From the sequence record SRR31156797_768: a stretch of DNA of 61,562 nt; one strand, given 5' to 3'. A program made the translations under genes and the position numbers. Under the pieces are notes generated by a model. The model saw only the letters and a list, made by a program, of their open reading frames with translations. It did no database searches and was not told the DNA's origin. Position 1 is the first letter of the stretch; each line of letters begins with the position of its first letter. Below, piece after piece: positions 25,836-49,305 of this stretch.

Positions 25836-25848
25836 GGAGAAACAAGAT

Positions 25849-26575: not shown

Positions 26576-26613
26576 CCTGCACTGTGAGATCAATGACCGA
26601 AAAAGGAATTCGT

Positions 26614-26856: not shown

Positions 26857-26873
26857 CCAAGGGAGTAAGGGCC

Positions 26874-28298: not shown

Positions 28299-28337
28299 CC
28301 AAGACAATGATTGATGAAGACCCCGGACTCTTCCTCC

Positions 28338-28524: not shown

Positions 28525-28531
28525 AAAAGAA

Positions 28532-29125: not shown

Positions 29126-30192
29126 AAGAACACGACATTCTCACGTACCTCACAGGCGCAAATGACAAAGAACTCTTTGGACGCGCCAACGCGACCCAAT
29201 CACAGGAGTTTGGTAACGAAATATACCTTCGTGCCATCATTGAATTTTCCAACGTCTGCAATAAGAAATGCCACTATTGCGGTCTGCGTGCTCCCAATAA
29301 GGGAATAACCCGTTACCGGATGGGAAATGAGACCATATTAAACGCCGCTTCAATGGCCGTTTCCCAAGGAGCGGGAACCATCGTGCTCCAGTCTGGCGAC
29401 GATTTCAGCTACTCCACTCAATCCATTGGTACGCTGATTAAAGAGATCAAAGATCGGCACGACGTGGCAGTAACGCTCTCATTAGGCGACCGGGGTATGG
29501 ATGAATATGCATTCTGGCGCGAGTGTGGGGCAGACCGTTGTCTGCTCAAACTGGAGACCACCAATCCACGTCTTTATAAACGACTCAGGGATGGCGAGGA
29601 GTTTTCGTCAAGATTGCATAGAGTCGAATCCCTCCGGCATCTCGGCTATGAAGTTGGATCGGGTGTTATCACCGACCTCCCTGACTCAAACCTCATTTCC
29701 ACGCTCCAAGACATTCTGTTCCTCACTGCCCTCGACCTGGACATGATCGCTGTCGGCCCATTCATTCCGCATCCTCAAACGCCATTGGCACAGGTTGCAC
29801 CCGGCAGCATTGAGTTATCAAACAGGGTGACGGCCATCTTACGTATCCTCAATCCACACGCCAACATCCCGGCTACATCAGCCTTGAGCGCTTTGAAACC
29901 CGAGTCTCAAAGGCTTGCACTGACTCGTGGATGCAATGTCATCATGCCCTCCATGACCCCGGAGGACCATCGCGCAGATTACACCATCTATCCCGGAAAA
30001 AACGCATCGAACATTGATATCAAGGATTCTCTGACACATGCCAAAAGCATGATCCGCTCCCTCGGCCTTGTGCCGTCATCATCCAAAGGATTCTCTCCAA
30101 GGAGAAACAATGTCCAACAAAGCACCCCGCGGAATACGACTGGTCATAACCCTCGCCGGACAAAGGAATGCAGGCAAGTCATCACTGGTTAA
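29113..30192 (+). CDS. hydE: [FeFe]-hydrogenase H-cluster radical SAM maturase HydE
   Basis: LRAIIEFSNVCNKKCHYCGLR, TIVLQSG, VTLSLG, GPFIPHPQTPL, NIPATSAL, YTIYPGK. Confidence 0.93.
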   Translation: MYTLKEHDILTYLTGANDKELFGRANATQSQEFGNEIYLRAIIEFSNVCNKKCHYCGLRAPNKGITRYRMGNETILNAASMAVSQGAGTIVLQSGDDFSYSTQSIGTLIKEIKDRHDVAVTLSLGDRGMDEYAFWRECGADRCLLKLETTNPRLYKRLRDGEEFSSRLHRVESLRHLGYEVGSGVITDLPDSNLISTLQDILFLTALDLDMIAVGPFIPHPQTPLAQVAPGSIELSNRVTAILRILNPHANIPATSALSALKPESQRLALTRGCNVIMPSMTPEDHRADYTIYPGKNASNIDIKDSLTHAKSMIRSLGLVPSSSKGFSPRRNNVQQSTPRNTTGHNPRRTKECRQVITG

Positions 30193-31312
30193 CGCCATAA
30201 CGGATCAAAAAATAGCCATTGTCTCGGATATGCCGGGGACGACAACGGACCCGGTTGCCAAGCATTACGAATTGCTTCCGCTCGGCCCTGTCACATTCTA
30301 CGACACAGCCGGACTCGATGACTCTGGCGAACTTGGGGAGTTGCGAATCAAGGCAACACGAAAAGTCCTCTGGCGTTCGGATGTGGCAATAGTCGTTGTC
30401 GGCGAGGCAGGGCTCACGCCACATGAACTGAAAATAATCGAAGACATCATCGAACTGGACATCCCATTCATCATCGCTTTCAACAAAAGTGACATCAGGG
30501 AACCATCAGCCGAAGACCGCGCATACTGTCAAAAAAAGGGATTTCGGTTCCTGACCACCTCGGCCAAAGATGAAACAAATATCGACGAAATAAAACAGGC
30601 GATCATCGACATCGCACCGCCGGAAATGAAGCGTGACCCGGTACTGGCTGGCGACCTCTTCAACAAAGGGGAATGGGTCGTCTGCGTCGTGCCGATAGAC
30701 CTTTCCGCTCCCAAAGGACGGCTCATCCTGCCTCAGGTGCAAATCTTGCGAGAGATCCTAGACGGTGACGCTTTGGCGTTAACCACCAAGGAATCAGAAC
30801 TCGAAGAGGTTTTGTCCGGCCTGAACCACAAGCCCGCACTGGTTATCACGGATTCTCAAGTCGTACACAATGTGGCCAAAGTCGTCCCGACCGATGTCCC
30901 ATTGACCACTTTTTCGACCCTGTTCGCCCGTTACAAAGGAGACCTTCCAACACTTGTGCATGGCGCGAAAGCCATTGATACCCTGAGTGAAGGTGACACA
31001 ATACTCATCGGCGAAGCCTGTTCCCATCATCCGGTGGAAGATGACATAGGCCGGATCAAAATTCCGCACTGGGTCACACAATACACAGGGAAAAACCTGA
31101 ACTTCGAGACCTATTCAGGCCACGACTTCCCTGAAGATTTGGAACGATTCAAACTCGCTATCCACTGCGGTGCCTGCATGTTGAACCGAACCGAGATGCT
31201 ACGCCGCATGAATGAATGTTCGCGCCGTGGAGTTCCAGTGACCAACTACGGCGTAGCCATCTCCAAAGTACAGGGAGTACTTGAGAGGATTCTCACACCA
31301 TTTGCACTATAA
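30110..31312 (+). CDS. hydF: [FeFe]-hydrogenase maturation GTPase HydF
   Basis: GQRNAGKSS, PGTTTDPV, DTAG, NKSD, APKGRLILPQVQ, EACSHH...HCGACM; RBS AAGGAG before ATG 30110. Confidence 0.96.
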   Translation: MSNKAPRGIRLVITLAGQRNAGKSSLVNAITDQKIAIVSDMPGTTTDPVAKHYELLPLGPVTFYDTAGLDDSGELGELRIKATRKVLWRSDVAIVVVGEAGLTPHELKIIEDIIELDIPFIIAFNKSDIREPSAEDRAYCQKKGFRFLTTSAKDETNIDEIKQAIIDIAPPEMKRDPVLAGDLFNKGEWVVCVVPIDLSAPKGRLILPQVQILREILDGDALALTTKESELEEVLSGLNHKPALVITDSQVVHNVAKVVPTDVPLTTFSTLFARYKGDLPTLVHGAKAIDTLSEGDTILIGEACSHHPVEDDIGRIKIPHWVTQYTGKNLNFETYSGHDFPEDLERFKLAIHCGACMLNRTEMLRRMNECSRRGVPVTNYGVAISKVQGVLERILTPFAL

Positions 31313-31392: not shown

Positions 31393-32355
31393 TTACTGCC
31401 CTAAAGCGGCACTCCACTGCTTGAATATCTGCGGATACTCAAGGACGCTGGAATCACCATAAAAAGGCAGCGAATACACCGAACCGGTTTTGATGGCCGG
31501 GACATCAGCCAAAGCCGGATTCTTCTGCAAAGCCTTGTGCAGTGCCAGTTGCACGGCAAATCCGTCACCTGTGGCAACGATCACGTCAGGTTTGACCTTG
31601 TCTAACCAACCCAAACGCCCACCAGAAACATGGCCTTTGCTGACCTTCATCGTGTCGGTCATCATGGCGTCTGCCACGTTTTTGCACCCAAGCGGATTCA
31701 GGATGTACTGATCAGAATAACCACCAGGAGCTTCCACGCGGATAAAGGTTTTCCCCGATGCGAGATAATGACCGTTGAGTACGAGAACTCGTTTGCCGGT
31801 CTTCTGTTTGGTCAAAGAAGCTTCGACCTTCTTCATGGCTTTTGCATACGAGGCAGCCACTTGATGTCCCTGCTCCTGCTTACCAAACAACTCGGCAATC
31901 TGTGAGATGGCAGGGACGACGCCACTGCTGAAATCCACATACTCAATGGTGATACCGGGGACATCCTTGACCAACTCAGCCACTTTCACAGGATTCACTT
32001 TTTTCTTGTACAAGCAAAACTTAACGCTTTTTTCCAAGATGAGCCGAGTAATGCCCCGCTCCTTCATGAAATTAGCGATGGTCTCTGGGTGTTTGACCGT
32101 GACATAGTTGGGGCACCCCAAAAGCTGAGAAGCCATTTTGATCTCATCGGCTTTGGGCCACATGGATGCTCGCACGGCCATCCCTTCTGCGACAACACCA
32201 AGCTTCAAGGCCACATCCACCAACCTGTCACCAACCATGACGGCCTTGATCTTCTCCGGCGCCTTGTACGGAGTGGCATTAGCGCAGGTCAATCCAAAGA
32301 GAATCGCCATGCAGGACAGGCATGTTACAATCAAAAGCAAACGTATTTTTTTCAT
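31393..32355 (-). CDS. periplasmic substrate-binding protein (Fe/B12/heme helical-backbone type)
   Basis: Signal peptide MKKIRLLL; PDVIV and LADVPAIKTGSVYSLP C-terminal pattern typical of FecB/BtuF-class SBPs. Confidence 0.75.
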   Translation of the reverse strand: MKKIRLLLIVTCLSCMAILFGLTCANATPYKAPEKIKAVMVGDRLVDVALKLGVVAEGMAVRASMWPKADEIKMASQLLGCPNYVTVKHPETIANFMKERGITRLILEKSVKFCLYKKKVNPVKVAELVKDVPGITIEYVDFSSGVVPAISQIAELFGKQEQGHQVAASYAKAMKKVEASLTKQKTGKRVLVLNGHYLASGKTFIRVEAPGGYSDQYILNPLGCKNVADAMMTDTMKVSKGHVSGGRLGWLDKVKPDVIVATGDGFAVQLALHKALQKNPALADVPAIKTGSVYSLPFYGDSSVLEYPQIFKQWSAALGQ

Positions 32356-32371
32356 TTTTATCTCCAAATAA

Positions 32372-33415
32372 TTAGAAGCTGAAAGCAAGACGGGTCACAA
32401 CCTGAAAGTCTTCACCCAGCCCATACCGGCTGTTGCGATCTGGATTGGCTGAGTAACCATTGAGATCACGGTAGACGACCACGGGGACACCCAATGACAA
32501 ATGGCATTTCTCAGCCATCTTCCAATGAATACCGGGGGTAATGTAAATGGTGTGCCCACCTGTTGATTTGGCAATTTCGTTGTCGTAGCGATGACGCTCT
32601 TGTTCGACGCCATTCAATTCGAGTTCAAGGTCGAAATACTTATTAAGGGCATACCCATATCCGAAATTATACTTAAACTGTTTACCCTTACGAGAGCCAT
32701 GCGCACCATCACCGGGAATGGTGTACATAAAATGCATGTCGAACCGTGACCGATCTACAAATTTGGTCAAACCTAACTCAAACTTTGGATCCCAGGACCC
32801 GGTACCAAGCTGACCGCCCGGCCCAAGGTACTTGTGCGCATTGGAAAACGGAAAATCATTTTCATGATCGGCATCGCCCGTAGGCAACTTCAATCCTGCG
32901 CCCAAAGCCACACTCATCCAATCGCCCTTCCGCTGACTCATGAGTGCGTACCGGCCCATAACCACCACATCACCCAAACCACTGACCGAATCGGTCCCTG
33001 TGGATGTGGGAGGATTGCCAGCCTTGCGTTTAAGCTCCTTATCCCAAAACGGAACCATAACGCGGGCTTCAAAATCTTCAAACAGTCCGGCTTTAGCCGT
33101 AAACTGCAATCCCTGATTTACACGGTCGTATTTCCCCCCGTAATTACCATGCTTTTCCTCACTTCCGTCATACAAAGAATCTTTGTGAACGTACCGACAT
33201 TTAACACTGGCGGTTACTTTCCCTTTAGGGAGAACTATCCCGTTTGACATGTTGATCAAGCCCACGCACTTGACAGGTTTTGTATCGGGCCTGTCCTTCA
33301 AGGTTGCCTCGGAATCACTTCCGCCGCCCATAACAGGTCCAGCATGCGCCGAAGGAAGCCCTTCACTAAAAGTTAAACATGTCACAACTGCCATAATAGC
33401 CAAAAGGCGTTTCAA
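32372..33415 (-). CDS. outer-membrane beta-barrel channel (COG4313 / Phenol_MetA_deg-like transporter)
   Basis: TTG start after GGGGAGG; signal peptide; SGLGDV, GLKLPTG, LGTGSWD motifs; C-terminal Phe (LAFSF). Confidence 0.78.
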   Translation of the reverse strand: MKRLLAIMAVVTCLTFSEGLPSAHAGPVMGGGSDSEATLKDRPDTKPVKCVGLINMSNGIVLPKGKVTASVKCRYVHKDSLYDGSEEKHGNYGGKYDRVNQGLQFTAKAGLFEDFEARVMVPFWDKELKRKAGNPPTSTGTDSVSGLGDVVVMGRYALMSQRKGDWMSVALGAGLKLPTGDADHENDFPFSNAHKYLGPGGQLGTGSWDPKFELGLTKFVDRSRFDMHFMYTIPGDGAHGSRKGKQFKYNFGYGYALNKYFDLELELNGVEQERHRYDNEIAKSTGGHTIYITPGIHWKMAEKCHLSLGVPVVVYRDLNGYSANPDRNSRYGLGEDFQVVTRLAFSF

Positions 33416-33467: not shown

Positions 33468-33490
33468 TTGATTATGAAATTCATTTTCAA
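33468..33490. promoter_or_regulatory. Fur box
   Basis: ATGAAATTCATTTTCAA (33474-33490) matches 16/17 of the deltaproteobacterial consensus WTGAAAATNATTTTCAW, with an overlapping second box shifted 6 bp. Confidence 0.82.
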
Positions 33491-33697: not shown

Positions 33698-33767
33698 AAA
33701 AAGGGCGTGGGGGATCGCCTATCCACTGGAGTTCGAGGACGCACTCCAACGATCCCCCAAACGCCCT
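33698..33767 (-). terminator. terminator-like hairpin at the end of the feo-fpv operon
   Basis: AAAAAGGGCGTGGGGGATCG...CGATCCCCCAAACGCCCT. Confidence 0.55.
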
Positions 33768-33784: not shown

Positions 33785-34648
33785 CTAATGGTGAGCCACG
33801 GGTTGTTTGCGCTCGTTAGGGACGAGAATCACAAGTGTGGCTGTCTGCTTCTGTTGCAGATATTTATCCTTGTTTTCAGGTGTGGCGTCGGTCTTTATGA
33901 AATACCGAATAAACCACCGTCCCGGTTGGTCGAGGGAAACCTTAATGGTATCGCCGGATGCAGTGGCTCTTGGATGATACAGGTCCTCTGATTCCGTAGA
34001 AAATCCCGCATAAGTGGCATCCCAAGCCCCAGAACCAAAGTACCGTTTTCCATCACGAAAAATTTTCAAGGACAGAACATCACCAGGCTTCAATGTTGTC
34101 GGGTCCTGCATGGGAACCAGTTCGAGCGGCAGTCCCACATGGGCCTGATAGAGTCCATCAGAAGCTCCACAACGGACATACGTCTTTGCATACTGTTTGC
34201 TGTACAGGGATTTCTCGATTTTTGATGCCTTGTCCACAACAGCGCTCATGGGTTTGATGGTACTGCGATTACGCCCTTTTTTATCTACCCACTTGGTATA
34301 AAAACCGGGATTGGTCTCTGCGGCCAACACATAGGCACCGGGCTTGTCGTACTCGACCATGTAAGAATGCAGACAGGTTTCATCGCGTAGCTGAATTGCA
34401 GTTGCCTGCCCGGACGGATCAAAAACATTCACCGATGCAAGCTTATTCCGACGCACACCGTCATCTACAGGGAAATGATGTCCATAACAAAAAAAGAGCG
34501 GTGTTTTCTTTCCCTCATCCACCCTGTGGCGACCGGATTGAATAAACATTGAATGAGCCGACGCAATGTCAACGCCCAAGGCAGTGATCATCATGGCTAC
34601 GACAAAGAGCAAACTCACATACATAATTTTCGGTTTACAAAAAGACAT
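33785..34648 (-). CDS. DUF4198-family periplasmic metal-uptake-associated protein
   Basis: Signal peptide ending ASA|H; YGHHFP, QYAKTYV, GLPLELVP, PGRWFI. Confidence 0.82.
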   Translation of the reverse strand: MSFCKPKIMYVSLLFVVAMMITALGVDIASAHSMFIQSGRHRVDEGKKTPLFFCYGHHFPVDDGVRRNKLASVNVFDPSGQATAIQLRDETCLHSYMVEYDKPGAYVLAAETNPGFYTKWVDKKGRNRSTIKPMSAVVDKASKIEKSLYSKQYAKTYVRCGASDGLYQAHVGLPLELVPMQDPTTLKPGDVLSLKIFRDGKRYFGSGAWDATYAGFSTESEDLYHPRATASGDTIKVSLDQPGRWFIRYFIKTDATPENKDKYLQQKQTATLVILVPNERKQPVAHH

Positions 34649-34670
34649 TATGAACCCCCGTCCACGTTGG

Positions 34671-34853
34671 TTATTTTCTTTTAAGAGAAGATTGACTATC
34701 CCCGTCAGCACCACGCACTCCGCACGAGGTACAATCGCACCCGGAGCACCCGCAGGTAGAACTTCCTTTCCCGCTGTTACGCCCGGCAAACCTGCGCTTG
34801 AGCAAATAAGCCACAGCCACGACAATGATTACAATCGCAAAGATGGTATCCAT
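34671..34853 (-). CDS. FeoB-associated Cys-rich membrane protein
   Basis: 60 aa; single TM followed by CGCSGCDCTSC; RBS GGAGG; same operon as feoB. Confidence 0.85.
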   Translation of the reverse strand: MDTIFAIVIIVVAVAYLLKRRFAGRNSGKGSSTCGCSGCDCTSCGVRGADGDSQSSLKRK

Positions 34854-34867
34854 GACTTCCTCCGAAA

Positions 34868-35782
34868 TTAATCCTTTAGCGCCACAAGGAGACGTGACAA
34901 ATTGCGCTCATACCAGTTGCTCAAGGAGAGTATCGGCTCGACATCTGATTCGCGAACGAACTTCTCCAGTACCACAGGGACAGCACCGCCCATCAAGAGA
35001 GCCTTTCGCACCTTCTCATCCGGCTCCCATGCACAGACAACTGCTTTAATACCAACGGATTTCAACTGTTCGGCAAAACCCTTTGCATCATTTTCCGTCC
35101 ACTCGACTTCAGACTTAAGGGCGTAGACAATGACATCCAATCCAAATTCATCGATTAATGGGGTGTACGCACCAGTCAGCGCAGCAATGTCCACACTCTC
35201 AAGATCAGTAAACGCCGCTTCATACTTTGACCGGATTCTGAACAGAACAGACTGCATTCTCTTGAGATTGGCCTTGATCGTCGAAGCTTCCGCAGGGACA
35301 AGACGCGAAAGGTCATCGGCTGCAATGGCCCCCATACGGGTCATATTGGCGGGGCTACGCCAGACAAACGGAACGTTCTTTCCTTGCACCGTCACCAACG
35401 GCACACCCGCGCCATATTCGTCCAAAGGTCTGGTCGCGTCGATATTGACCACTCGGATGTTGCTTCGTCTGGCCCATTTGTACAAAGGGTCAGCCGGCCA
35501 AGCTGATCCGACGGTAAGTACAGCGTCTGCTTTGGCAGCCGATTGAAAGAACGCTTCCCTGTGCTTTTTGAAATAAGCGTCCTGCCCTCGCATGGAATAC
35601 CCTTGCGGGATGCTATTCATCACCGTGATGGATGTATTTTCTGTCAGGACTTCAGCCATGGCCTGCACTGCGCCGAGGGATGTCAAAACAACAATCTTTT
35701 CCTCAGGATTACCGGCAATACCTGTCCTTGCCCAAAGAGAAATAAATGCCATCAACAAACCGACAATAAGGAACTTCTTCAT
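34868..35782 (-). CDS. fpvF: ZnuA-fold substrate-binding protein, FpvF-like
   Basis: ADAVLTVGSAWPADPLYKWARRSNIRVVNIDATRP resembles Pseudomonas FpvF; lacks the usual His metal ligands; last gene of an SBP-ATPase-permease-SBP set. Confidence 0.75.
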   Translation of the reverse strand: MKKFLIVGLLMAFISLWARTGIAGNPEEKIVVLTSLGAVQAMAEVLTENTSITVMNSIPQGYSMRGQDAYFKKHREAFFQSAAKADAVLTVGSAWPADPLYKWARRSNIRVVNIDATRPLDEYGAGVPLVTVQGKNVPFVWRSPANMTRMGAIAADDLSRLVPAEASTIKANLKRMQSVLFRIRSKYEAAFTDLESVDIAALTGAYTPLIDEFGLDVIVYALKSEVEWTENDAKGFAEQLKSVGIKAVVCAWEPDEKVRKALLMGGAVPVVLEKFVRESDVEPILSLSNWYERNLSRLLVALKD

Positions 35783-36684
35783 ACCGCAGCCTCCTTGAAA
35801 GAGCCGGACGCCATGCGCACTCCGGCTGTCATCAGAAAGACGATAGAAGCGACGAGTATGATGGCACCGCCAGACGGCACCGGGATTTCAAATTGCATGG
35901 GGATAATGATGCCGAGCACGCAGCTCACAGTGGCAAAGATGACACTATAAAAGAAAAAGCCACGCACGGAACGGCTGACGTTTCTCGCTGCCGCCGCCGG
36001 GATAATGAGCAAAGCTTCCACAAGTACGGCCCCTACAATTTTCAGGCAGGCCACGGTAATAACCGTGATCATGAGTACGAACACATAATCATACAATTTG
36101 GCATTGATACCGCGAACCTGCGCGAGGCTGGGGTTAAAGCTTGCAAGCAGCATTTTATTATAGGTAGGGATACCCACGGCAACGCATATCCCGGCAATGA
36201 CAATCAAAACGTTCATATCCGTGTTGTTCACCGTAAGGATGGAACCAAACAGAATATTGTCCAACACATGCATATTCACCTTGGCCGTGACATACAAAAG
36301 AACACAGGCCCCCACTGCCAACGAGACTGAAAGGAAAACACCGATGACAATATCCTGCTTCATGCGCATACGATTACGGGTGTAATTCATGGTCAGTGCG
36401 AACAGGATACAAAACCCGAACAAGGATACATACGGGGCGGTCACAGGTTCACCAAGCAACACGCCGAGTGCCACGCCTGTCAGGGCGGCCTGCCCTACTG
36501 CCTGAGAGAAAAAGGCCAACCGCTTTGAAACCACCATGGTACCTATGCCACCAAGAAGCGGTCCAGCCACCAATGCGCATAATAGAGCGTTGATAACGAA
36601 AGCGTATTGAAAGAATTCAGGTAACACCCCAGCCTTGCCCATCTCCATGAGCGGAAGTCGAATAAAGTCGTAAATAAAATCCAT
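35779..36684 (-). CDS. fpvE: metal ABC transporter permease, FpvE-like
   Basis: ABC-3 pattern: RLAFFSQAVGQAALTG, ILFGSIL, IVGAVLVEALLIIPAAAAR, PSGGAII. Confidence 0.85.
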   Translation of the reverse strand: MDFIYDFIRLPLMEMGKAGVLPEFFQYAFVINALLCALVAGPLLGGIGTMVVSKRLAFFSQAVGQAALTGVALGVLLGEPVTAPYVSLFGFCILFALTMNYTRNRMRMKQDIVIGVFLSVSLAVGACVLLYVTAKVNMHVLDNILFGSILTVNNTDMNVLIVIAGICVAVGIPTYNKMLLASFNPSLAQVRGINAKLYDYVFVLMITVITVACLKIVGAVLVEALLIIPAAAARNVSRSVRGFFFYSVIFATVSCVLGIIIPMQFEIPVPSGGAIILVASIVFLMTAGVRMASGSFKEAAV

Positions 36685-36688
36685 CAAA

Positions 36689-37414
36689 TCAGGCCGCCTT
36701 GACTGAAGAAAAAACAGAAAACACACGCTCAGGAGTCAATTCCTCGACCGGAGGCCCCGAAAACAACAATTGCCGATTGATACACGTCACAACATCACCC
36801 ATTTCACGGACAACCGAGAGATCATGATGAATACAAAGGATCGTTGTCCCTTCCCGGCGCAATTCTTCCAGCACATCATGCATAATCGCTGTACCGGCCT
36901 GATCCAAACCGGTTGTCGGTTCGTCCAGAATAAGCAACTTTGGACGAGGCATTAAGGCTTGTGCGAACAGGACTCTTTGACGCTCTCCTCCGGAGAGCGA
37001 GCCAAATGGTCGGTTAATCTTTGAATCCATACCAACTCGTTGCAACACATCGTGAATCAAGGACCGCTTACTACGCTTCAAACCGAGAAAGGCAGGCCTT
37101 CGTTGGCAAAGCATTGCCATGAAATCCAAGACCGTCATGGGCAAGGTGTCATCATAATCCAACGACTGAGGGACATATCCGATCGTTGTCGGCCCACCCC
37201 AGCAAATACGAATATCGCCAGTGTGGGGCATCTGTCCGAGCATTGAACGAATAAGAGAAGTCTTGCCGCCTCCATTGGGACCAATTATGCAATGAATCGA
37301 ACCAGGTTGAATCGTAAAATTCACATCCGACAAAATGGTGTTACCGCCAAGACGAAGTCCCAAATGCTCAAAGTGGACGGTGGGACCATTTGTCAACAGA
37401 GTCACATTGGACAT
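36689..37414 (-). CDS. fpvD: metal ABC transporter ATP-binding protein, FpvD-like
   Basis: GPNGGGKT, IGYVPQ, LSGGERQRVLFAQAL, LDEPT, IHHDL. Confidence 0.88.
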   Translation of the reverse strand: MSNVTLLTNGPTVHFEHLGLRLGGNTILSDVNFTIQPGSIHCIIGPNGGGKTSLIRSMLGQMPHTGDIRICWGGPTTIGYVPQSLDYDDTLPMTVLDFMAMLCQRRPAFLGLKRSKRSLIHDVLQRVGMDSKINRPFGSLSGGERQRVLFAQALMPRPKLLILDEPTTGLDQAGTAIMHDVLEELRREGTTILCIHHDLSVVREMGDVVTCINRQLLFSGPPVEELTPERVFSVFSSVKAA

Positions 37415-37415
37415 A

Positions 37416-38330
37416 TCAGCCTCCCTGTTTGGCAGTTTTTGCGTCAACAAGGGCATTTGTCAGGGCTTCAAGATTGGCTCGCAATCCCTTCTCAAACCCC
37501 TCTTCCGTATATTCGCCATTGGTCAAATGCGACAAATGACGAATCCGAATACCGGTCTCCTCATGGATGGTGTCCACATATTTGTCGGAAAACGCCATCT
37601 CAGTAAAAATAACATTCACGCCAAGCCTTTTGATTTCATCTATAATTCGGGCAAGCTGGCTGGCCGTAGGCTTCAGCCCATGCCCCGGCTCGATAACAGC
37701 GGTCACCTGCAATCCGAAATCCTGAAAAAGGTAATCATATCCGCCGTGAATAGTAGCGCAACGAAAATCCAAATCCGGCAAGTCGGCTATACGCTCCATG
37801 TATTCGGCTTTCATCCGACGAAGCCGAGCCGCATATTTTCGTCCATTCTTTCGGTATAGAGAGGCGTTCTCAGGAAACAGTTCTCCCAGCTCTTTTGCAA
37901 TGGTATAAACTTGGCGAACCGAGGCGGTCACAGAGACAAATGTGTGGGGATTGACAACCTTCTTGCCATCCAGATGACCACTCACCGGGATAAGCGAAAC
38001 GTCCTTGTTGGCGAAAATAAGTGGGAGTTTCCCTTTCAAATTGGCTGCTTCGATACTTTCAAAAGCGAATTCATCATGCCCGATGCCGTTGACGACCATG
38101 ACATCCAACGTCATGCATTTCTTGATATCCTCGGGCTGAGGCCGGTAATTATGAGGATTAAACCCTTCACCAATGAGGGGAACGACGTCGGCAGTATCGC
38201 CGACGATAGCTTTCACAAAGCTATAATACGGATGCAGTGTCACACCAATACGGGGAATATCTTCAGCGGGGTACACAGCACTGACCATAAACAAACCAAA
38301 AACAATACTATATAGTAACTTACGAATCAT
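37416..38330 (-). CDS. fpvC: metal-binding periplasmic protein, FpvC-like
   Basis: RIGVTLHPYYS, GFNPHNY, NGIGHDEFA, VVNPHTF, ATIHGGYDY, EPGHG, LSH His-rich ligand set as recalled for Pseudomonas FpvC. Confidence 0.85.
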   Translation of the reverse strand: MIRKLLYSIVFGLFMVSAVYPAEDIPRIGVTLHPYYSFVKAIVGDTADVVPLIGEGFNPHNYRPQPEDIKKCMTLDVMVVNGIGHDEFAFESIEAANLKGKLPLIFANKDVSLIPVSGHLDGKKVVNPHTFVSVTASVRQVYTIAKELGELFPENASLYRKNGRKYAARLRRMKAEYMERIADLPDLDFRCATIHGGYDYLFQDFGLQVTAVIEPGHGLKPTASQLARIIDEIKRLGVNVIFTEMAFSDKYVDTIHEETGIRIRHLSHLTNGEYTEEGFEKGLRANLEALTNALVDAKTAKQGG

Positions 38331-38986
38331 TAAAAGTAATCCTCGCCTCGAGATTTTTTCATTTCTCGTTCACCCTTCCGAGCAACCACTTCCCGCCATC
38401 CACCATTGATCAATGCCTGATCCGTGCTCATTCCCGGAAACGAAGGAGAGGAAGAAGGATGAATCCAAACTTCAAAGGGAACATGATCGGCCCCTCCTGC
38501 ATTCCCTTGTTTCTTGACATGATCATGCAACATCACCAGCAGGAAAGAGCCTGTTTTGGTGTCATCACCAGGATTTCCCATATACAGAACAATATGTTTA
38601 TCCTCTGTACTGATAATGTTCCGTATCCAATGATAACTCCCGTCACTACGCCACGATGAATCCTGAACGAACGGAGGCAGCTGAGCCTCAGCCAATTCCG
38701 TCACCGACGGCCAATCAAACTCATCTTCATGAATCATTTCAATCTCAGGAGCTGATGTAAGAAGCGCATTGAAAATAGCGAGCTCTTCAGGTTGAAGATC
38801 GCTGAAAGCATCGACCTGCCACGCAGGGACCGTATATTCCTCTGCCCCGGAGCTTCGTAAAAGGATGCCGCATCCGCACAAAACAATGGTCACAAATGCA
38901 ACAATCACGACGAGCTGAGTTTCAAAAGTTCCGCCAGCGGGTGGAACAACCACCTCGCATTGCGTCACCCGTATTTTTTCGTCCAT
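38330..38986 (-). CDS. fpvK: FpvK-like (DUF6162) single-TM protein
   Basis: VVPPAG..ET..V TM, WQVDAFSDL, WPSVTELAEAQLPPF, C-terminal LINGGWREVV; directly before the fpvC-like gene. Confidence 0.7.
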   Translation of the reverse strand: MDEKIRVTQCEVVVPPAGGTFETQLVVIVAFVTIVLCGCGILLRSSGAEEYTVPAWQVDAFSDLQPEELAIFNALLTSAPEIEMIHEDEFDWPSVTELAEAQLPPFVQDSSWRSDGSYHWIRNIISTEDKHIVLYMGNPGDDTKTGSFLLVMLHDHVKKQGNAGGADHVPFEVWIHPSSSPSFPGMSTDQALINGGWREVVARKGEREMKKSRGEDYF

Positions 38987-39047
38987 CTGCACACCGCCTT
39001 CTCGCCAAGCTCTCACGCACCAAAAGTCCATCACAGTCCGCTATCCG

Positions 39048-39093
39048 CCGCAGGTCGGTGCGGCGGCTCTTTGGCAAGCCGCCGCACCTGCGG
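39048..39093. other. strong GC-rich intergenic hairpin
   Basis: GGTGCGGCGGCT-N8-AGCCGCCGCACC, extended by CCGCA/TGCGG; no U-tract. Confidence 0.55.
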
Positions 39094-39133
39094 GGAGGGT
39101 ATGACTCTCACTATCTAGAGGGGGAATACCATT

Positions 39134-39964
39134 CTATTTCATGTCTTCGGCCTTGACCCAGATAACTGCGTCCTGACCAAGTTCCTTGCCTTTGTATTCC
39201 TTTTCGGGACCAACACCGAGAGCTGCAAAGCCCCACCAACCAGCCTTGGGGATACCAAAGGTGATATAACCATCAGCATCAGTGAAGATGGTCTGGGTGA
39301 CAAAGGAACCCTGCGGATATGTCACTGTGGACTCTGCGGGCATGGAGTTGGTTTTCAGGTTGGGCATATGGCTCATGTACTCGACTTCAACTTCAGCACC
39401 GGCTACAGGCTTGCCATCGGACAGAACCTGTGCCTTGAAGACGTTACCGGTCCACAGACCATACGGTTTGATCAGGGGAACGATTTCGCACGGAAGACCA
39501 ACAGGCTCAGCCCAGTTGCCAGGTACGCCGCCAACATTCAGGATCAGCTTGGTGATCTGCTGCATGTACAGACCTTCTTCTTTTTCAAAGTAGTAACCGG
39601 GCTTCATGACAAAAACGTAGTCGCCCATGGAGCGCACTACTTTCTTGGGAATCATGGCAGAAAACGCCGGTGCCTGCGCTTCGGGATTCTTCCATACGAT
39701 ATCTTTCAGGTAACCTTTGAGGTCGGTTTTCTTCACTTTGGAATCACCGCGCTGGCTCACAACATAGAACTCTTCAACACCACCCATATCCATCATGTGA
39801 CCGGCTTCGGCGGGATGGGTGAACATAATGCGCATGTCCAAGTTCTTGCTTTCCTGCAGCGCAATTTCCGGGGTGTACACAACCATGAAATGAGCGAATG
39901 CAGAACCAACCAAAGTCAATACGCATGCCGCAGCCATAAGGGGGATAAACCGTTTCATCATCAA
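39134..39964 (-). CDS. DUF4198-family periplasmic protein (NikM/CbiM-system-associated type)
   Basis: AFA|HF signal cleavage; FTHPAE, PGYYFE, GLPCEIVPL..PYGLWTGNVF, AEVEVEY, AGWWGFAAL. Confidence 0.88.
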   Translation of the reverse strand: MMMKRFIPLMAAACVLTLVGSAFAHFMVVYTPEIALQESKNLDMRIMFTHPAEAGHMMDMGGVEEFYVVSQRGDSKVKKTDLKGYLKDIVWKNPEAQAPAFSAMIPKKVVRSMGDYVFVMKPGYYFEKEEGLYMQQITKLILNVGGVPGNWAEPVGLPCEIVPLIKPYGLWTGNVFKAQVLSDGKPVAGAEVEVEYMSHMPNLKTNSMPAESTVTYPQGSFVTQTIFTDADGYITFGIPKAGWWGFAALGVGPEKEYKGKELGQDAVIWVKAEDMK

Positions 39965-39979
39965 AAAAACTCCTCTCGA

Positions 39980-40002
39980 TTGAAATTGAATATTATTCTC
40001 AA
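39980..40002. promoter_or_regulatory. internal Fur box
   Basis: TTGAATATTATTCTCAA (39986-40002), 15/17 to WTGAAAATNATTTTCAW. Confidence 0.75.
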
Positions 40003-40056
40003 TATATCCATTTTAAAAAAGCAAGGCAGGCAAGCCACACCTTGCATCACACGTCT

Positions 40057-40374
40057 TTATTCCACGATGTCAGCGCCGTTAACTTCCACGGTGTGACCTT
40101 CACCACCATCAAAAATAACAAGGTAGCCACCTTCGGGCTTGGTGAAAGAATATTCGCTGTCTTCGTTCATCTTGCCTTCAAGTATGCTTTTCCCATCTTC
40201 ACTCTTGACGTGCATCTTGGTACCGGATGCAGAAGAACCATCAGAATACCCACCTTCGCAGGTGACAGTACCATCGCCGTTATCAAAGCAGCTCATCAAG
40301 GGGCTGTGGGCAAAAGCCATTCCGGAAAAACCGAGCAATGCCGCCAAAGTCAAAACAATCATCATTTTTTTCAT
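40057..40374 (-). CDS. fpvJ: FpvJ-like small periplasmic protein
   Basis: AFA|HSPLMSC...VTCEGGYSDGSSASG...FTKP..YLVIFDGGEGHTVEV resembles Pseudomonas FpvJ as recalled; RBS AAGGAGG. Confidence 0.72.
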   Translation of the reverse strand: MKKMMIVLTLAALLGFSGMAFAHSPLMSCFDNGDGTVTCEGGYSDGSSASGTKMHVKSEDGKSILEGKMNEDSEYSFTKPEGGYLVIFDGGEGHTVEVNGADIVE

Positions 40375-40388
40375 CTGTATACTCCTCC

Positions 40389-42890
40389 TTAAGAGCACTC
40401 TTTATTATACGCAGGAGCGGACACAGCCGCTTCCTTTTCTTCAGGTGTTGGGATCATTGCCATGCCGATGGTTGCGGCAAGGCACAGCCCATAAAATGCC
40501 CACATTGTCTGCCAGCCGGTCAATCCGAGCACTGTGCCACCGGTAAAAACCAAGCTGGCGACAAACAAGCCCAGTACAGTCTGATAACCGATGGAAAACA
40601 GCATCCAGCCCGTTGAATTGGACTGACTTCTCACCATGATGGATGTAGGAACGCAGGGTGGGTACAAAGCCATGAACAGCATCAGAGCCAACGCATGCAA
40701 GGGGGTAAACCCACCTTCATTCGCCTTCATGCTCTCTTGAACAGACTGGCCGGAATCATCAATGCCATAGATGGAGCCGAGGGTTGCCGCACTGTTTTCC
40801 TTAGCCGCAAAGGCTGACAACAATGCGATATTGATACGCCAGTTAAACCCGGCCCACTGAGTTACAGGCTCGAGAGCCTTGCCCATGGAACCAAGGAAAC
40901 TGTTTTCAAAACGCTCACCACGCATTTCGCGCCGTATTTTCTTACGAACCTTGATGACTTTTTTCAGTTCCCGATTCAGCTTTTTGCCATCCTTACCAAC
41001 ACGTTTTACAACGGCATAATAGATCGGGTTCTTCGCCTGAAAGTCTTCATTGATGGCAGCGGATGTCTCCTTGTCCTTCACACCTCGCTTAGCCTGCTTC
41101 AACGCTTCGCCAAACAGGATGACTGCAGTCGTATTTTCAGAAGTAATCTGTCCGGCATACTGGGTTGCGTCCACTTTCTGAACAAAACCCGCCACAGCTT
41201 TATCTTGCATGGCAGCGTAATGCGCCATTTTTTCTTCAGATAACCCCGGGAAGTTGATCAGCACAAAGACGACCACGGCTACGGCTGCAACCACAGTGAC
41301 AATCTTCTTCATAAACAGCCAGATTCGTTCAAAAGCACGCCGCAATATTCCAGAAATGGTCGGCAAATGGTACGGCGGCATCTCCATAATAAACGGAGCA
41401 CTGTCATGCTTCCGAAGTACGGTCAGCGAAAGCAGTTTTGCAACAGGCAAGGCCATGAACAGGGTTACTGTGGCAATAAAAAACATCGCCCACCCTGCAA
41501 CATCGGCAAAATATGCCCCGATAAGAATCAGATAGAGCGGCACCTTCGCCAGGCAGTTCATCATGGGAATAATAAGGATGGTCGCCAAACGAGCCCGTTC
41601 GTCAGGAATGGCCTTGGTCGCCATGACACCGGGGATAGCGCATCCTCCCACATATACACCGCCAAGAATCATGGGCAGTGTAGACTGGCCATGCAATCCG
41701 AAACGACGGAACAACCGGTCCAGCAAAAAGGCCATTCGTGGCATGTATCCACTGTCTTCAAGAATGGCGATAAGGGCGAACAACAGGAAAAAGATGGGAA
41801 GATAATTCAAAATTGCCGTGATGGATTTCACCACCCACACACCAAGTGAACGCAACAGTGGATCTGTCATGAACCCGGCTTGCGGCAAGATATCTCCGGC
41901 CAAATCTTCAAGCCCACCCCAAACCGGCCAGACTTGCAAGGCAAGCCAGCCACCAAAAACAATGGAGATTTGATACAACACCACCAGAATGGCGACCAGA
42001 ATAATCGGCCCCAGATAGCGGTTGCAGACATACTTATCAACGGTATCCGACAGGTTATGACCGCGTTCACGCGGCAACGTTACCACATCTTTGGCTATCT
42101 TCGCGCATACGGCATGGCGGGTAAAAGCAATATGCCTGTCCGCTCCGTTCGTATTCTCTTTCGCAAAGCGCTCTCTGCAAGATTCCACTTTGGCAAAAAC
42201 CTGCTCGCTGTCAGGATGATTCAACGTGAGCTGCTTTCCAGCCTCTACGTCACCTTCGAGCAGTTTGATTGCAAGCCAACGCACTGGATAGCGAAGACAG
42301 GAAACAGGGTCCTCGACCAACATCACCTCAAGTTCGGCAATAAATGGCTCAAGCGGACCGTAATCAATCTTAAAAACATCTTCTTTACGCCCCTGAGCTA
42401 AGGCCTGCATCGCGGTTTTAAGAGCTTCCCGACCAACACCTTTTTTGGCAGTAGTTGGTACAACCGGGATACCAAGAATATCTTCCAGTTTTTCGATATC
42501 CACGGCATGTCCACGACGCTCCACCACATCCATCATGTTGAGATTAAGAAGCGCAGGGACTTCCATCTCCAAAATTTGAAGAGTCAGGTACAAGTTGCGT
42601 TTGAGATTGGAACCATCGGCCACATCAATGACAACATCGGGATTGTCACCCAACAGGAAATCACGAGCAACGCGCTCTTCCAAAGAGTAGGATGTCAGGC
42701 TGTACGTACCCGGCAGGTCAATCAACTCTACACGGGAATCACCCAATTTGAATGATCCGGTCTTTTTCTCAACAGTCACGCCCGGATAGTTGGCGACATG
42801 CTGACGTGCGCCTGTCAGCATATTAAAAACAGTGGATTTTCCGCAGTTTGGCTGTCCGGCCAAAGCAACGACGAGTTCTTTCGAAGCCAT
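40389..42890 (-). CDS. feoB: ferrous iron transporter FeoB
   Basis: GQPNCGKS, VANYPGVTVE, DLPGTYSL, NMMD, LEDSGYMPR, PFIMEMPPYHLP, LYPPC gate motifs. Confidence 0.97.
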   Translation of the reverse strand: MASKELVVALAGQPNCGKSTVFNMLTGARQHVANYPGVTVEKKTGSFKLGDSRVELIDLPGTYSLTSYSLEERVARDFLLGDNPDVVIDVADGSNLKRNLYLTLQILEMEVPALLNLNMMDVVERRGHAVDIEKLEDILGIPVVPTTAKKGVGREALKTAMQALAQGRKEDVFKIDYGPLEPFIAELEVMLVEDPVSCLRYPVRWLAIKLLEGDVEAGKQLTLNHPDSEQVFAKVESCRERFAKENTNGADRHIAFTRHAVCAKIAKDVVTLPRERGHNLSDTVDKYVCNRYLGPIILVAILVVLYQISIVFGGWLALQVWPVWGGLEDLAGDILPQAGFMTDPLLRSLGVWVVKSITAILNYLPIFFLLFALIAILEDSGYMPRMAFLLDRLFRRFGLHGQSTLPMILGGVYVGGCAIPGVMATKAIPDERARLATILIIPMMNCLAKVPLYLILIGAYFADVAGWAMFFIATVTLFMALPVAKLLSLTVLRKHDSAPFIMEMPPYHLPTISGILRRAFERIWLFMKKIVTVVAAVAVVVFVLINFPGLSEEKMAHYAAMQDKAVAGFVQKVDATQYAGQITSENTTAVILFGEALKQAKRGVKDKETSAAINEDFQAKNPIYYAVVKRVGKDGKKLNRELKKVIKVRKKIRREMRGERFENSFLGSMGKALEPVTQWAGFNWRINIALLSAFAAKENSAATLGSIYGIDDSGQSVQESMKANEGGFTPLHALALMLFMALYPPCVPTSIMVRSQSNSTGWMLFSIGYQTVLGLFVASLVFTGGTVLGLTGWQTMWAFYGLCLAATIGMAMIPTPEEKEAAVSAPAYNKECS

Positions 42891-43111
42891 TAGTCGCCCA
42901 CCTGAATATGCCGAGCTTCGGTATGTCTAATGGAGACATGATAGCCGTCAAGATGCAGCTCCACGGGATCAACCAGTGGGGCATTCCGAACAATTTCGAT
43001 CTCGGCACCGGGGTAAAATCCCAGATCCATCAGCCGTTGTCCCAAGGCCCCATCTGTTGTGATGTCTTTCATCACGCACCGAGTCCCCGGATTTAATTCG
43101 TCAAGAGTCAT
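42890..43111 (-). CDS. feoA: FeoA
   Basis: RLMDLGFYPG...RNAPLVDPVE...SIRHTEA SH3-like pattern. Confidence 0.93.
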   Translation of the reverse strand: MTLDELNPGTRCVMKDITTDGALGQRLMDLGFYPGAEIEIVRNAPLVDPVELHLDGYHVSIRHTEARHIQVGD

Positions 43112-43157
43112 TACTGTCACTTCCTTGATATGTGTATTCCCGACACGGCACGCCGTA

Positions 43158-43382
43158 TTAGGCCACCAAAACCTTTTGTGCGATGCCGCGCTCAACCATT
43201 ACTCGTCCCTCTCCCACGGAAACAAGCATTGGACCTCGGCTGTTATTCAAAACATCAACCTCAATTCCGGGGATGATACCGATGGACTCCAGCCGTGTTC
43301 TGGCCTTGCAACCGGCGTCAATGGCCACCACAAAAGCGGTCTCTCCCGGCGCCATGGATTTAAGAGTTTTGTGAGAAAACAT
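43158..43382 (-). CDS. feoA: FeoA (second copy)
   Basis: RLESIGIIPG...GPMLVSVGEGRVMVERGIAQKVLV. Confidence 0.9.
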   Translation of the reverse strand: MFSHKTLKSMAPGETAFVVAIDAGCKARTRLESIGIIPGIEVDVLNNSRGPMLVSVGEGRVMVERGIAQKVLVA

Positions 43383-43419
43383 GCGAACCTCCCCTCGTTG
43401 GAAAAACCATTTGTTGCAA

Positions 43420-43442
43420 TTGATAATGAATTTCGATATCAG
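43420..43442. promoter_or_regulatory. Fur box between feoA and the divergent Fur paralogue
   Basis: TTGATAATGAATTTCGATATCAG; 14/19 to the classical Fur box and 14/17 to the deltaproteobacterial box. Confidence 0.72.
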
Positions 43443-43597
43443 CAATAAACCCGACGCAACAAGAGGTCAACAAAAAAGATTTTTTAAGATTCAATGTCAA
43501 CTTGAGCTATATATATGGCAAAAAACCTGCCCTATTGAGACTCTCGGTCAACAAAGGCCTCGAAACCCCAAAATACGCTTACGGAAAGATCAAAAAA

Positions 43598-44053
43598 ATG
43601 CAGGAAGCACTCAAATCGTTCAAGAAATATCTGGCAAACAACACGCTCAAACTAACTCAGCAAAGACTCTTAATTCTTAAGGTTTTCATGAGTAAAGGCG
43701 CTGAGATGAGCTCAGAACAACTACTCAGTGCAGTGCAGGACATCGATGATGCGGTCAGCCGATCTACGGTATATAGAACCATCAAACATTTTCATCACGC
43801 AGGCATTGCCCGATGCATTCACCATAGGGACGGTTCCACCCACTATGAGCCATCCGGTGACCATAACAGTCATATGCTCTGTGAAAGATGTGGCAAAATC
43901 ATCCCGATCCGCAACCCATATATACAATGCCTGCAACAGGAAACAGCCCGCCAACAAGGATTCACTCTTTATCGTTACACGACAACGTTCTATGGCCTTT
44001 GCAGCGAATGCACTGAAGCTTTACAATCAGCGAAAACCAAAACATCCGGGTGA
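43598..44053 (+). CDS. Fur-family transcriptional regulator (divergent paralogue)
   Basis: LKLTQQRLLIL, VSRSTVYRTI, HMLCERCG and FYGLCSEC structural-Zn motifs. Confidence 0.88.
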   Translation: MQEALKSFKKYLANNTLKLTQQRLLILKVFMSKGAEMSSEQLLSAVQDIDDAVSRSTVYRTIKHFHHAGIARCIHHRDGSTHYEPSGDHNSHMLCERCGKIIPIRNPYIQCLQQETARQQGFTLYRYTTTFYGLCSECTEALQSAKTKTSG

Positions 44054-47402: not shown

Positions 47403-47675
47403 ATGACCTTGGATATTTATGAGGACTCCTTATACGGGCAGGTCCTCCCATCAAATTGGGATGGAGACATCATTTCAGGAGTCTTGATCCTTGTAGATGG
47501 CGAAGAAGAATTTATCGTTGAGCACGATGAAAACGCAAAAGGCTTAACAGCACACATCGAGAAATGGGTAACCGTCACCGGCACCATCATGAAAAATGAT
47601 GATGAGTTACGCATAAAAGTCATTAACTACACCCTCGAAAATGACCTCGACTATATTTCAGACGACGATTGGTAG
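47403..47675 (+). CDS. small acidic hypothetical protein (possible OB-fold)
   Basis: RBS GGAG; 90-aa ORF rich in beta-strand patterns (WVTVTGTI). Confidence 0.7.
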   Translation: MTLDIYEDSLYGQVLPSNWDGDIISGVLILVDGEEEFIVEHDENAKGLTAHIEKWVTVTGTIMKNDDELRIKVINYTLENDLDYISDDDW

Positions 47676-47745
47676 AATCCCCCCTAAAAGACTTGAGGGA
47701 TTCTACGAAGCACGCTACGAATTCCTTCGAATCCAAGGAGTCAAT

Positions 47746-49282: not shown

Positions 49283-49305
49283 TTTTTGACTCCGTATATG
49301 TTCGA

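Follow-up and report, generated by a model that had tools for sequence, protein, structure and literature searches.

The subject of this report is an iron locus in a window of 61,562 nucleotides (the whole stretch of DNA analysed, from sequence record SRR31156797_768), in which feoA and feoB genes stand beside homologues of fpvJ, K, C, D, E and F of Pseudomonas. The results suggest that it is probably a Fur-repressed Fe(II) acquisition locus, modular in build and consisting of three consecutive units. The feoB, fpvJ-like and DUF4198 genes within it form a trio that is widespread in Desulfobacterota. Linkage of feo to the other fpv-like genes is confined to part of one family. The FpvKCDEF module is found in anaerobes without a PepSY reductase, both alone and docked to feo, which indicates that it is a general divalent-ion importer recruited by Pseudomonas for pyoverdine, and not a pyoverdine-specific device. 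Every part of the locus comes from a known family; the novelty lies in the combination and in the role that it implies for FpvJ.

Gene content of the locus

Twelve open reading frames (ORFs) lie in one orientation on the minus strand between 33785 and 43445, and all twelve co-oriented genes claimed in an earlier note on this DNA are present in Pfam and NCBIfam scans of the window proteins, by which the genes were named. Their order is feoA, feoA, feoB, an fpvJ-like gene, a DUF4198 gene, an fpvK-like gene (DUF6162), fpvC-, fpvD-, fpvE- and fpvF-like genes, a gene for a Cys-rich peptide and a second DUF4198 gene. The host appears to be a Pseudodesulfovibrio-type sulfate reducer, going by the names on close homologues. 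The genes of the locus, its divergent regulator and the genes that follow are these:

43502..44053, plus strand: Fur-family regulator gene, divergent from feoA (Pfam FUR 85 bits)
43158..43382, minus strand: feoA copy 1 (Pfam FeoA 55 bits; likely start ATG at 43382)
42890..43111, minus strand: feoA copy 2 (Pfam FeoA 74 bits; likely start MTLDEL)
40389..42890, minus strand: feoB, long subtype of 833 residues (FeoB_N 215 bits, Gate, FeoB_Cyto, FeoB_C; TIGR00437 479 bits, cut-off 316)
40057..40374, minus strand: fpvJ-like periplasmic protein of 106 residues (signal peptide, His as first mature residue, Cys pair; no Pfam family)
39134..39961, minus strand: DUF4198 a, periplasmic metal-capture family (Pfam DUF4198 181 bits; His directly after AFA)
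38330..39034, minus strand: fpvK-like, DUF6162 (Pfam DUF6162 64 bits; single N-terminal hydrophobic helix)
37416..38330, minus strand: fpvC-like cluster A-I metal-binding protein (ZnuA-type, Pfam 176 bits)
36689..37456, minus strand: fpvD-like ATPase of the ATP-binding cassette (ABC) type (ABC_tran 88 bits)
35779..36726, minus strand: fpvE-like ABC-3 permease (ABC-3 180 bits)
34868..35782, minus strand: fpvF-like second, degenerate binding protein (ZnuA-type, 48 bits only)
34671..34853, minus strand: small membrane peptide of 60 residues with CGCSGCDCTSC, FeoB-associated type (PF12669, FeoB_associated, 25.2 bits, E 2e-5, cut-off 27)
33785..34648, minus strand: DUF4198 b (Pfam DUF4198 125 bits; His directly after ASA)
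31393..33414, minus strand: unit 3, outer-membrane barrel (PF13557) and Peripla_BP_2 binding protein (Pfam), also found after DUF4198 b in the relatives L114, L118, L084 and L134

The locus holds the parts expected of a Feo system, namely a FeoB with G-domain, helical domain and Gate/FeoB_C membrane domain, together with FeoA. The fpvJ-like gene starts about 14 nucleotides past feoB, within the first unit. Both DUF4198 proteins score above the PF10670 cut-off and have His as the first mature residue, with cleavage judged by eye. The divergent regulator scores below the cut-off of every NCBIfam Fur and PerR model, and may be of either subtype. Dismissal of the 60-residue Cys-rich ORF as spurious was considered and dropped; the ORF is retained, despite its Pfam score below the cut-off, because it recurs at the same place in four relatives (L114, L120, L122, L134). 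The FeoB proteins that are linked to J carry a Lys/Arg-rich insert of about 130 residues (residues ~555-680) between membrane segments.

Homology to the Pseudomonas Fpv system

Judged from sequence, the homology of six of these genes to fpvJ, K, C, D, E and F is genuine; they are far closer to Fpv than to generic Zn/Mn systems, and the likeness in motifs and gene order that the earlier note described is borne out. Against PDB entries 6R3Z/6RU4 the fpvC-like protein reaches 304 bits (E 1.4e-89), compared with 96 bits for the best Zn/Mn protein, values at odds with the alternative raised in that note, of proteins nearer to generic Zn/Mn ABC systems than to Fpv. Entry 6R3Z is FpvC of P. aeruginosa, with a rare six-His site as described in bioRxiv 10.1101/2025.10.04.680417. 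All 7 His of the aligned FpvC region are conserved in the window protein.

A representative close to FpvC (437 bits) led, by way of an alignment, to 80 proteobacterial genome loci that were fetched for reference. The locus of P. fluorescens CFBP13716 (L072) has eight genes in the sizes and order of fpvGHJKCDEF, assigned by order and by the protein sizes quoted in PMC6954188. Compared with the proteins at the corresponding positions of this locus, the fpvJ-like protein is 44% identical (E 2e-29), the fpvK-like protein 29% (BLASTP, E 7e-24) and the fpvF-like protein 31% (E 3e-37); the protein at the fpvK position is itself a DUF6162 protein (155 bits). The fpvD-like and fpvE-like proteins are ~52% and ~55% identical to the Pseudomonas locus (tblastn), with order conserved. 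The fpvF-like protein is without at least the first two of the conserved His positions of FpvC. Nearly all of the 80 loci are arranged as G-H-J-K-C-D-E-F or J-K-C-D-E-F-G-H. Three full-length loci (L003, L004, L044) are without adjacent G and H, and feoB is near the Fpv genes in none of the 80.

The feoB-fpvJ-DUF4198 trio

Among 401 evenly sampled genomes of the family, J-like genes occur in 122, which cover 37 of 72 genera. The genes feoB, J and DUF4198 occur in one order and on one strand in all 30 of the 30 best family loci. A second sample, of 401 genomes of the phylum, has a J-like gene (E <= 1e-6) in 63. Among 28 further loci from the phylum, feoB lies just upstream of J in 24, and every locus that is long enough (25/25) has DUF4198 just downstream of J. 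The four loci without feoB in that position carry there a DUF4198 gene, a gene resembling an ABC ATPase, or no recognised gene.

The presence of J follows the subtype of FeoB among five congeners. J is found in both of those with the long FeoB subtype and in none of the three without it; these three have only a FeoB of 41-43% identity (ORFs of 712-725 residues), and both J-positive congeners carry both subtypes. All 20 family genomes that are positive for FpvC are also positive for J. This co-occurrence is given as a pattern without a statistical test, because the relatives are not independent of one another.

Neither a feo-fpv locus nor a feoB-fpvJ-DUF4198 trio was found described in the literature searched, in agreement with the earlier note, a search whose coverage left out subscription journals and supplements. 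Also outside that coverage were the supplements of the DUF4198 papers (networks and neighbourhood tables), which possibly list feoB neighbours.

Linkage to feo and the K-C-D-E-F module

With a threshold of E <= 1e-60, an FpvC-like gene was found in 20 of the 401 family genomes (2/151 in an earlier sample, and 2/401 in the phylum sample). All 22 FpvC-like places in the family sample were fetched and the window proteins were mapped onto each. The arrangement feoA(-feoA)-feoB-J-DUF4198-K-C-D-E-F is present in 12 genomes from 3 genera (G001, G730, G706, G586, G697, G677, G788, G776, G600; G747, G755; G638), so that the feo and fpv blocks are not unlinked in all relatives, an outcome that the earlier note had set against its own reading. 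Genome G001 has 54% of sampled words in common with the window and the same gene order. K-C-D-E-F comes directly after DUF4198 a in the 12 linked genomes, including those in which FeoB is only 48% identical. At 10 places in the family sample K-C-D-E-F stands alone, with neither feo nor J nearby, and G747 and G755 have both the linked and the stand-alone form. The linked form also occurs in 3 of 28 fetched metagenome contigs (L083 being partial), and the stand-alone form in one metagenome contig.

The boundaries of the module are seen in G568, a congener without an FpvC-like gene. Its genes run fur / feoA-feoA-feoB-J-DUF4198 a-Cys peptide-DUF4198 b-outer-membrane channel-PBP2, between the same flanks as in the window (DUF1611, an alanine-racemase-like gene and MntP on one side, HydF on the other). 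Since G568 equals the window minus K-C-D-E-F, the variable block is K-C-D-E-F, and the feo part extends through J and the first DUF4198. G121 has feoA-feoA-feoB-J-DUF4198 only. To the earlier note the arrangement looked as if an fpv block were inserted into a feo operon. An insertion or deletion is indeed visible relative to G568, but the block is K-C-D-E-F and not J-K-C-D-E-F. Its view that FeoAB takes the place of FpvGH does not hold, as fpvJ and the first DUF4198 follow feoB in genomes without fpvCDEF. Nor is its view of a Cys-rich protein displaced from the side of feoB supported; the peptide is likewise apart from feoB in G568, where the block is absent. A quick tree of FpvC-like proteins leaves 18 of 54 inner forks open and places G638 on a long branch of its own; that the feo-linked state arose only once is neither shown nor rejected by this tree.

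Several variants of the arrangement were observed. One metagenome variant has TonB receptor-PepSY_TM_like_2-DUF2271-DUF4198-J-K-C-D-E-F. Another, without feo (L096 7361-15310 and similar), has J, an AAA ATPase of 486 residues, K, C, D, E, a second J-like protein with N-terminal His, F and an FmdE-domain protein. The fpvC-like gene of G600 (L132, 9715-11857) is in two pieces ~1.2 kb apart, possibly through an insertion, and the feoB match of G788 (L121, 13157-15656) is in two adjoining pieces, possibly through a frameshift. Divergence is uneven within the same loci: from L115 to L122, C and E are 71-88% identical to the window proteins, and K and F 36-60%.

Regulatory signals and predicted transcription units

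The locus is predicted to be transcribed as three consecutive units, each with its own FUR box of the delta-proteobacterial type. The signals are as follows:

43470-43465 and 43447-43442, minus strand: promoter-like pair TTGACC and TATTGC, spaced by 17 nucleotides, upstream of feoA
43440-43422, minus strand: FUR box 1, GATATCGAAATTCATTATC, immediately 3' of the promoter-like pair
40015..40046, minus strand: intrinsic-terminator-like hairpin and T6 after the fpvJ-like gene (-12.3 kcal/mol, z -1.7 in the window alone)
40002-39980, minus strand: FUR box 2 (tandem), TTGAGAATAATATTCAATTTCAA, upstream of DUF4198 a
39051..39090, minus strand: GC-rich hairpin without T-run between DUF4198 a and the fpvK-like gene (-38 kcal/mol, z -5.3)
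33698..33766, minus strand: strong intrinsic terminator after DUF4198 b, ending unit 2 (-41.7 kcal/mol, z -5.0, then TTTTT)
33475-33489 (core), minus strand: FUR box 3, TTGAAAATGAATTTCATAATCAA, in a third promoter-like region ahead of unit 3

Rodionov et al. give a 17-bp FUR motif for delta-proteobacteria (PMC545781, Table 3). Compared with the 15-base core of this motif, box 1 has 3 mismatches, box 2 has 2 and box 3 has 1. The core occurs 13 times in the window, where 5.6 are expected, and none of 100 shuffles reaches 13. A box of this kind, in places tandem, lies upstream of each unit, and binding of Fur is predicted. Compared with the E. coli Fur 19-mer, GATATCGAAATTCATTATC has 4 mismatches. 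A window scan with the E. coli 19-mer at <=3 mismatches gave a single match (5463-5481), and the delta-proteobacterial core is the better probe. Of 14 feo-linked loci, 8 have the exact string of box 1 and 2 more differ from it by one base; the divergent loci L117 and L119 have three tandem FUR-like boxes upstream of feoA instead. Boxes related to box 2 are found at the equivalent position in relatives. Of the two Fur boxes in the earlier note both are real matches, and the count was one short, as the third precedes two further co-oriented genes.

The single operon of the earlier note is contradicted by the predicted terminators after fpvJ (40046-40015) and after the last DUF4198 gene (33766-33698). 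A hairpin with T-run, differing in stem sequence, follows J in 12 of 14 orthologous loci, a count of which nine come from folding and three (L118, L132, L085) were judged by eye; L120 and L133 have a hairpin after J without a T-run. A consensus terminator scan picked up neither terminator, the loops being longer than it allows, and the number of sites it reported was no higher than in shuffles. A gene for an HD-GYP protein of ~226 residues lies between DUF4198 a and fpvK in L115, L116, L121, L122, L132 and L085; L084 has a remnant of it, and the window has only the hairpin at 39051-39090 at that spot. An HD-domain gene, 'hdd', is among the Fur targets predicted in PMC545781.

The FpvJ-like and DUF4198 proteins

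An alignment of 16 sequences of the J family, from both phyla, has an invariant AxA cleavage motif, an invariant His as the next residue, and invariant C30 and C40; a late His is nearly invariant. The model of J is a seven-strand beta-sandwich with a predicted local distance difference test score (pLDDT) of 90. A Foldseek search with this model returned nothing at E <= 0.001. The best VIA-align match is the MG1 domain of E. coli alpha-2-macroglobulin (Z 12.9, root-mean-square deviation 1.4, 76 residues aligned), followed by generic immunoglobulin-like and fibronectin type III-like domains; no anglerase, CopC-like or PCuAC-type chain stood out in the fold searches. These matches give a fold class and no functional lead. 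CopC, matched by a profile search of PDB sequences (E 0.0016), was set aside as a hint only, the aligned stretch being largely signal peptide. J also matches the NikL model, over its N-terminal half only (positions 2-90 of 180; E 4.8e-14, 52.7 bits, cut-off 100). Complex prediction of FeoB residues 280-832 with the mature FpvJ-like protein gave scores of 0.27 and 0.28, against a mark of 0.34.

DUF4198 a matches the Zcp structures 9MHI/9MHK weakly (E 0.002). Zcp is a DUF4198 protein reported to bind Zn through three His, to be dispensable for uptake and to act, as proposed, as a metal buffer (PMC12663993). IsDUF4198, of the same family, is reported to bind Ni with a dissociation constant of 18 nM and with its N-terminal His as a ligand (PMC12537917). 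In both proteins the His site is in the N-terminal region. The same source describes anglerase domains, beta-sandwiches with an N-terminal His that are fused to HupE/UreJ-2 permeases, often beside DUF4198 genes, and proposes that they fish for metal ions and feed the permease. The terms 'Fpv' and 'NikL' do not occur in PMC12537917, by a term search. A free-standing sandwich with N-terminal His, beside a permease and a DUF4198 protein, may by analogy be likened to an anglerase.

Reductases and receptors

No match to FpvG or FpvH is present in the window, consistent with their absence as claimed in the earlier note. Five genomes that carry the feo-linked form were searched for a PepSY reductase, with G001 as stand-in for the genome of the window. 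PepSY_TM (PF03929) was not found over the family cut-off in four of the five; the fifth has one, unlinked and beside a TonB-dependent receptor. PepSY_TM_like_2 (PF16357) was found in none of the five. The description of the system as reductase-free in the earlier note agrees with the search in four carriers and must be qualified for the fifth. The carrier genomes have 1 to 4 TonB-dependent receptors each, so that a chelate-dependent route may exist. That the route is siderophore-independent and that the metal is iron, as the earlier note had it, we infer.

Proposed mechanism and alternatives

The locus would work as follows. In unit 1 (feoA-feoA-feoB-fpvJ), FeoB would be the inner-membrane Fe(II) permease and the FpvJ-like protein a small periplasmic beta-sandwich that, given the invariant His as its first mature residue, is probably a metal-binding hand-off protein. 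Unit 2 would open with a DUF4198 protein that captures metal in the periplasm, followed by the FpvKCDEF module. The six-His FpvC-type protein would take up the free divalent ion, and the FpvDE ABC importer would pump it inward with ATP, with the membrane-anchored DUF6162 protein FpvK and FpvF, which has a binding-protein fold, as likely accessory parts. The unit would close with the Cys-rich membrane peptide and the second DUF4198 protein. Unit 3 would contribute an outer-membrane channel and a further binding protein, a pair that may be the outer-membrane entry of the system. The ABC module would thus serve as a high-affinity, ATP-driven route alongside FeoB. A PepSY reductase would not be needed, because the iron of the habitat is already Fe(II) or is chemically reduced.

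A number of observations weigh against this proposal. The score of the regulator at 43502-44053 cannot separate a Fur-family regulator from PerR. Binding of metal by the N-terminal His of J is an analogy, since the structural neighbours are generic beta-sandwiches and the CopC match lies largely on the signal peptide. The only library model that J matches, over its N-terminal half, is NikL, which belongs to a Ni/Co transporter. Nickel occupies the FpvC crystal site (6R3Z), and those DUF4198 proteins that have been characterised are binders of Ni or Zn. The terminator after J, taken from the window alone, is weak (z -1.7) and may be leaky or non-functional. K-C-D-E-F may have been either gained or lost, the quick FpvC tree being weakly supported. 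Finally, TonB-dependent receptors are present in every carrier genome searched, and two are in the window.

The main rival is the handling of Ni, Zn or Co by the periplasmic parts. The locus would then serve general capture of divalent metal (Ni, Co, Zn, Mn) and would not be specific for iron; J and DUF4198 would act like NikL and NikK, FpvCDE would import that metal, and FeoB would be merely co-located or carry another metal. The match of J to the NikL (HI1622) model, the metals bound by the characterised DUF4198 proteins (Ni at 18 nM, PMC12537917; Zn in Zcp, PMC12663993), the Ni in the six-His site of 6R3Z, and Ni-dependent functions nearby (LarC/E/B-like, 55606-58385) are in its favour. We nevertheless regard it as unlikely: all three units match the delta-proteobacterial FUR box, the trio is tied to feoA/feoB across the phylum, no CbiM, CbiQ or NikMQO family appears in the Pfam scans of the window, and the NikL score is far below its cut-off. 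A NikR-type site, as described for nik operons in PMC545781, was not seen in the stretches read, which were given no dedicated NikR scan. It might also be argued that there is no functional coupling at all, and that the locus is a Fur-regulon island of independent iron genes that are only juxtaposed. Three separate FUR-box units with terminators between them would fit such an island, as would K-C-D-E-F alone at 10 family places and in one metagenome contig, and further FUR boxes and iron genes in the window at 5.3-12 kb and 48-52 kb. An island is improbable in our judgement, given that 12 genomes of 3 genera have K-C-D-E-F at the identical spot behind DUF4198 a, even with FeoB at 48% identity, that 20 of 20 FpvC genomes have J, that J lies within ~14 nucleotides of feoB inside unit 1, and that FpvJ of Pseudomonas physically binds FpvC and FpvF as reported in PMC6954188.

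A ferric-chelate route like that of Pseudomonas would have the chelate enter through a TonB-dependent receptor and be bound by the FpvF-like protein, with reduction by something other than PepSY (periplasmic cytochromes or sulfide) before FpvC and FpvDE take over. It would account for the 1 to 4 TonB-dependent receptors of the carrier genomes, for the two receptors and the ExbB-ExbD-TonB set of the window, one receptor being beside a third DUF4198 gene, and for the metagenome variant that joins a TonB receptor, PepSY_TM_like_2, DUF2271 and DUF4198 to J, K, C, D, E and F. F and K change fastest (56-60% identity where C and E have 80-88%), which fits a ligand-specific partner. None of the three units, however, contains a receptor gene, and the trio and K-C-D-E-F are without an adjacent receptor in all family loci examined. 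Siderophore biosynthesis genes were not seen in the window, the only part of the genome searched for them. Such a route seems very unlikely, and a modular Fe(II) acquisition locus remains the preferred explanation.

Implications for FpvJ and for iron supply

Bacteria take up ferrous iron mainly through Feo, whose known helpers, FeoA and FeoC, are cytoplasmic. The phylum-wide feoB-fpvJ-DUF4198 trio points to periplasmic helpers of Feo and gives FpvJ a function that can be tested. FpvJ is required for full release of iron from pyoverdine in P. aeruginosa, a role that is unexplained. We tentatively suggest, as a possibility that is somewhat less than even, that the FpvJ-like and DUF4198 proteins are the periplasmic components so far missing from a FeoB subfamily, in which a beta-sandwich with N-terminal His catches periplasmic Fe(II) and feeds it to the mouth of an importer (FeoB in anaerobes, and FpvC/FpvDE where present, Pseudomonas included). 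If true, the task of FpvJ in Pseudomonas would be to hand on Fe(II), and Feo would have, across the phylum, periplasmic partners besides the cytoplasmic helpers that alone have been described so far. The sulfide around sulfate reducers strips free Fe(II), and the locus suggests how these organisms secure iron for their many Fe-S and haem proteins.

Neighbouring genes in the window

Other iron-type genes lie at some distance from the locus. The region 48395-52706 has a TonB-dependent receptor gene (49306-51408, minus strand) and a third DUF4198 gene (48395-49282, minus strand), with an AraC gene divergent from the pair and FUR-core matches at 51390-51404 and 51587-51601; MntP is at 47641-48315. 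A second iron-type cluster at 1680-12115 contains a CobW-like GTPase, ExbB, ExbD and TonB, FUR-core matches at 5345-5359 and 5462-5476, and then an AraC regulator, a TonB-dependent receptor, a methyltransferase and ABC parts. Adjoining the iron locus, at 24447-31312, are the large and small subunits of an [FeFe] hydrogenase, a TM1266-like regulator, a radical-SAM maturase and HydF. LarC-, LarE- and LarB-like genes for synthesis of the nickel-pincer cofactor (55606-58385) lie beside a LacI-type regulator and a PfkB kinase.

Comparison with known systems

The closest counterpart of the K-C-D-E-F module is the fpvGHJK-fpvCDEF locus of Pseudomonas (PA2403-PA2410). Homologues of J, K, C, D, E and F, with order conserved, are found in both, as are the His set of FpvC, the DUF6162 FpvK and a second, degenerate binding protein. 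The window locus differs in being without FpvG (PepSY_TM) and FpvH, in having feoA-feoA-feoB upstream, in the DUF4198 gene (in relatives also an HD-GYP gene) between J and K, and in the terminator and FUR box that split J from K-C-D-E-F. The host is strictly anaerobic and is not known to produce pyoverdine. In P. aeruginosa, FpvG is reported to reduce the iron bound to pyoverdine, after which FpvC takes Fe2+; FpvDE is a putative importer, FpvJ is in complex with FpvC and FpvF in the periplasm, and the functions of FpvJ and FpvK are given as unknown (PMC6954188).

Clusters of PepSY/VciB, DUF2271 and DUF4198 for ferric reduction (Caulobacter, and VciB of Vibrio) share DUF4198 with the window locus, and the metagenome variant described above fuses such a cluster to J-K-C-D-E-F, whereas the window has no PepSY-type protein, DUF2271 or flavin reductase. 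A DUF4198 protein is reported in a periplasmic iron pathway of Caulobacter that is induced by iron limitation (CCNA_03155-03159, 10.1101/2024.10.16.618771). The DUF4198 proteins of the locus resemble Zcp of N. gonorrhoeae and IsDUF4198 of Ideonella in PF10670 scores well above the cut-off and in a signal peptide that is followed by His. They are linked to feoB and FUR boxes and not to Zur or NikR, and their similarity in sequence to Zcp is marginal (E 0.002).

Like the anglerase domains of HupE/UreJ-2 and like NikL/NikK, J is a small periplasmic beta-sandwich, by its model, with an invariant His as first residue and a place beside DUF4198 and a metal permease. Unlike an anglerase, with which it is likened by description only, J is free-standing and not fused to a permease, and its partner would be FeoB or an ABC importer. 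Its score is below the NikL cut-off, and the window is without the full-length NikL with membrane part and the NikM/Q/O that make up a NikKLMQO system. The terms 'periplasm', 'Desulfo' and 'Deltaproteobacteria' are absent, by a term search, from the survey of Feo architecture in PMC8749426. With canonical Feo systems (feoA, feoB, and feoC or a Cys-rich peptide) the locus has in common two FeoA proteins, one FeoB, predicted Fur control and a small Cys-rich membrane peptide. It differs from them in that the Cys-rich peptide is not adjacent to feoB, and in the conserved trio that feoB forms with the genes for two periplasmic proteins, FpvJ-like and DUF4198, directly behind it.

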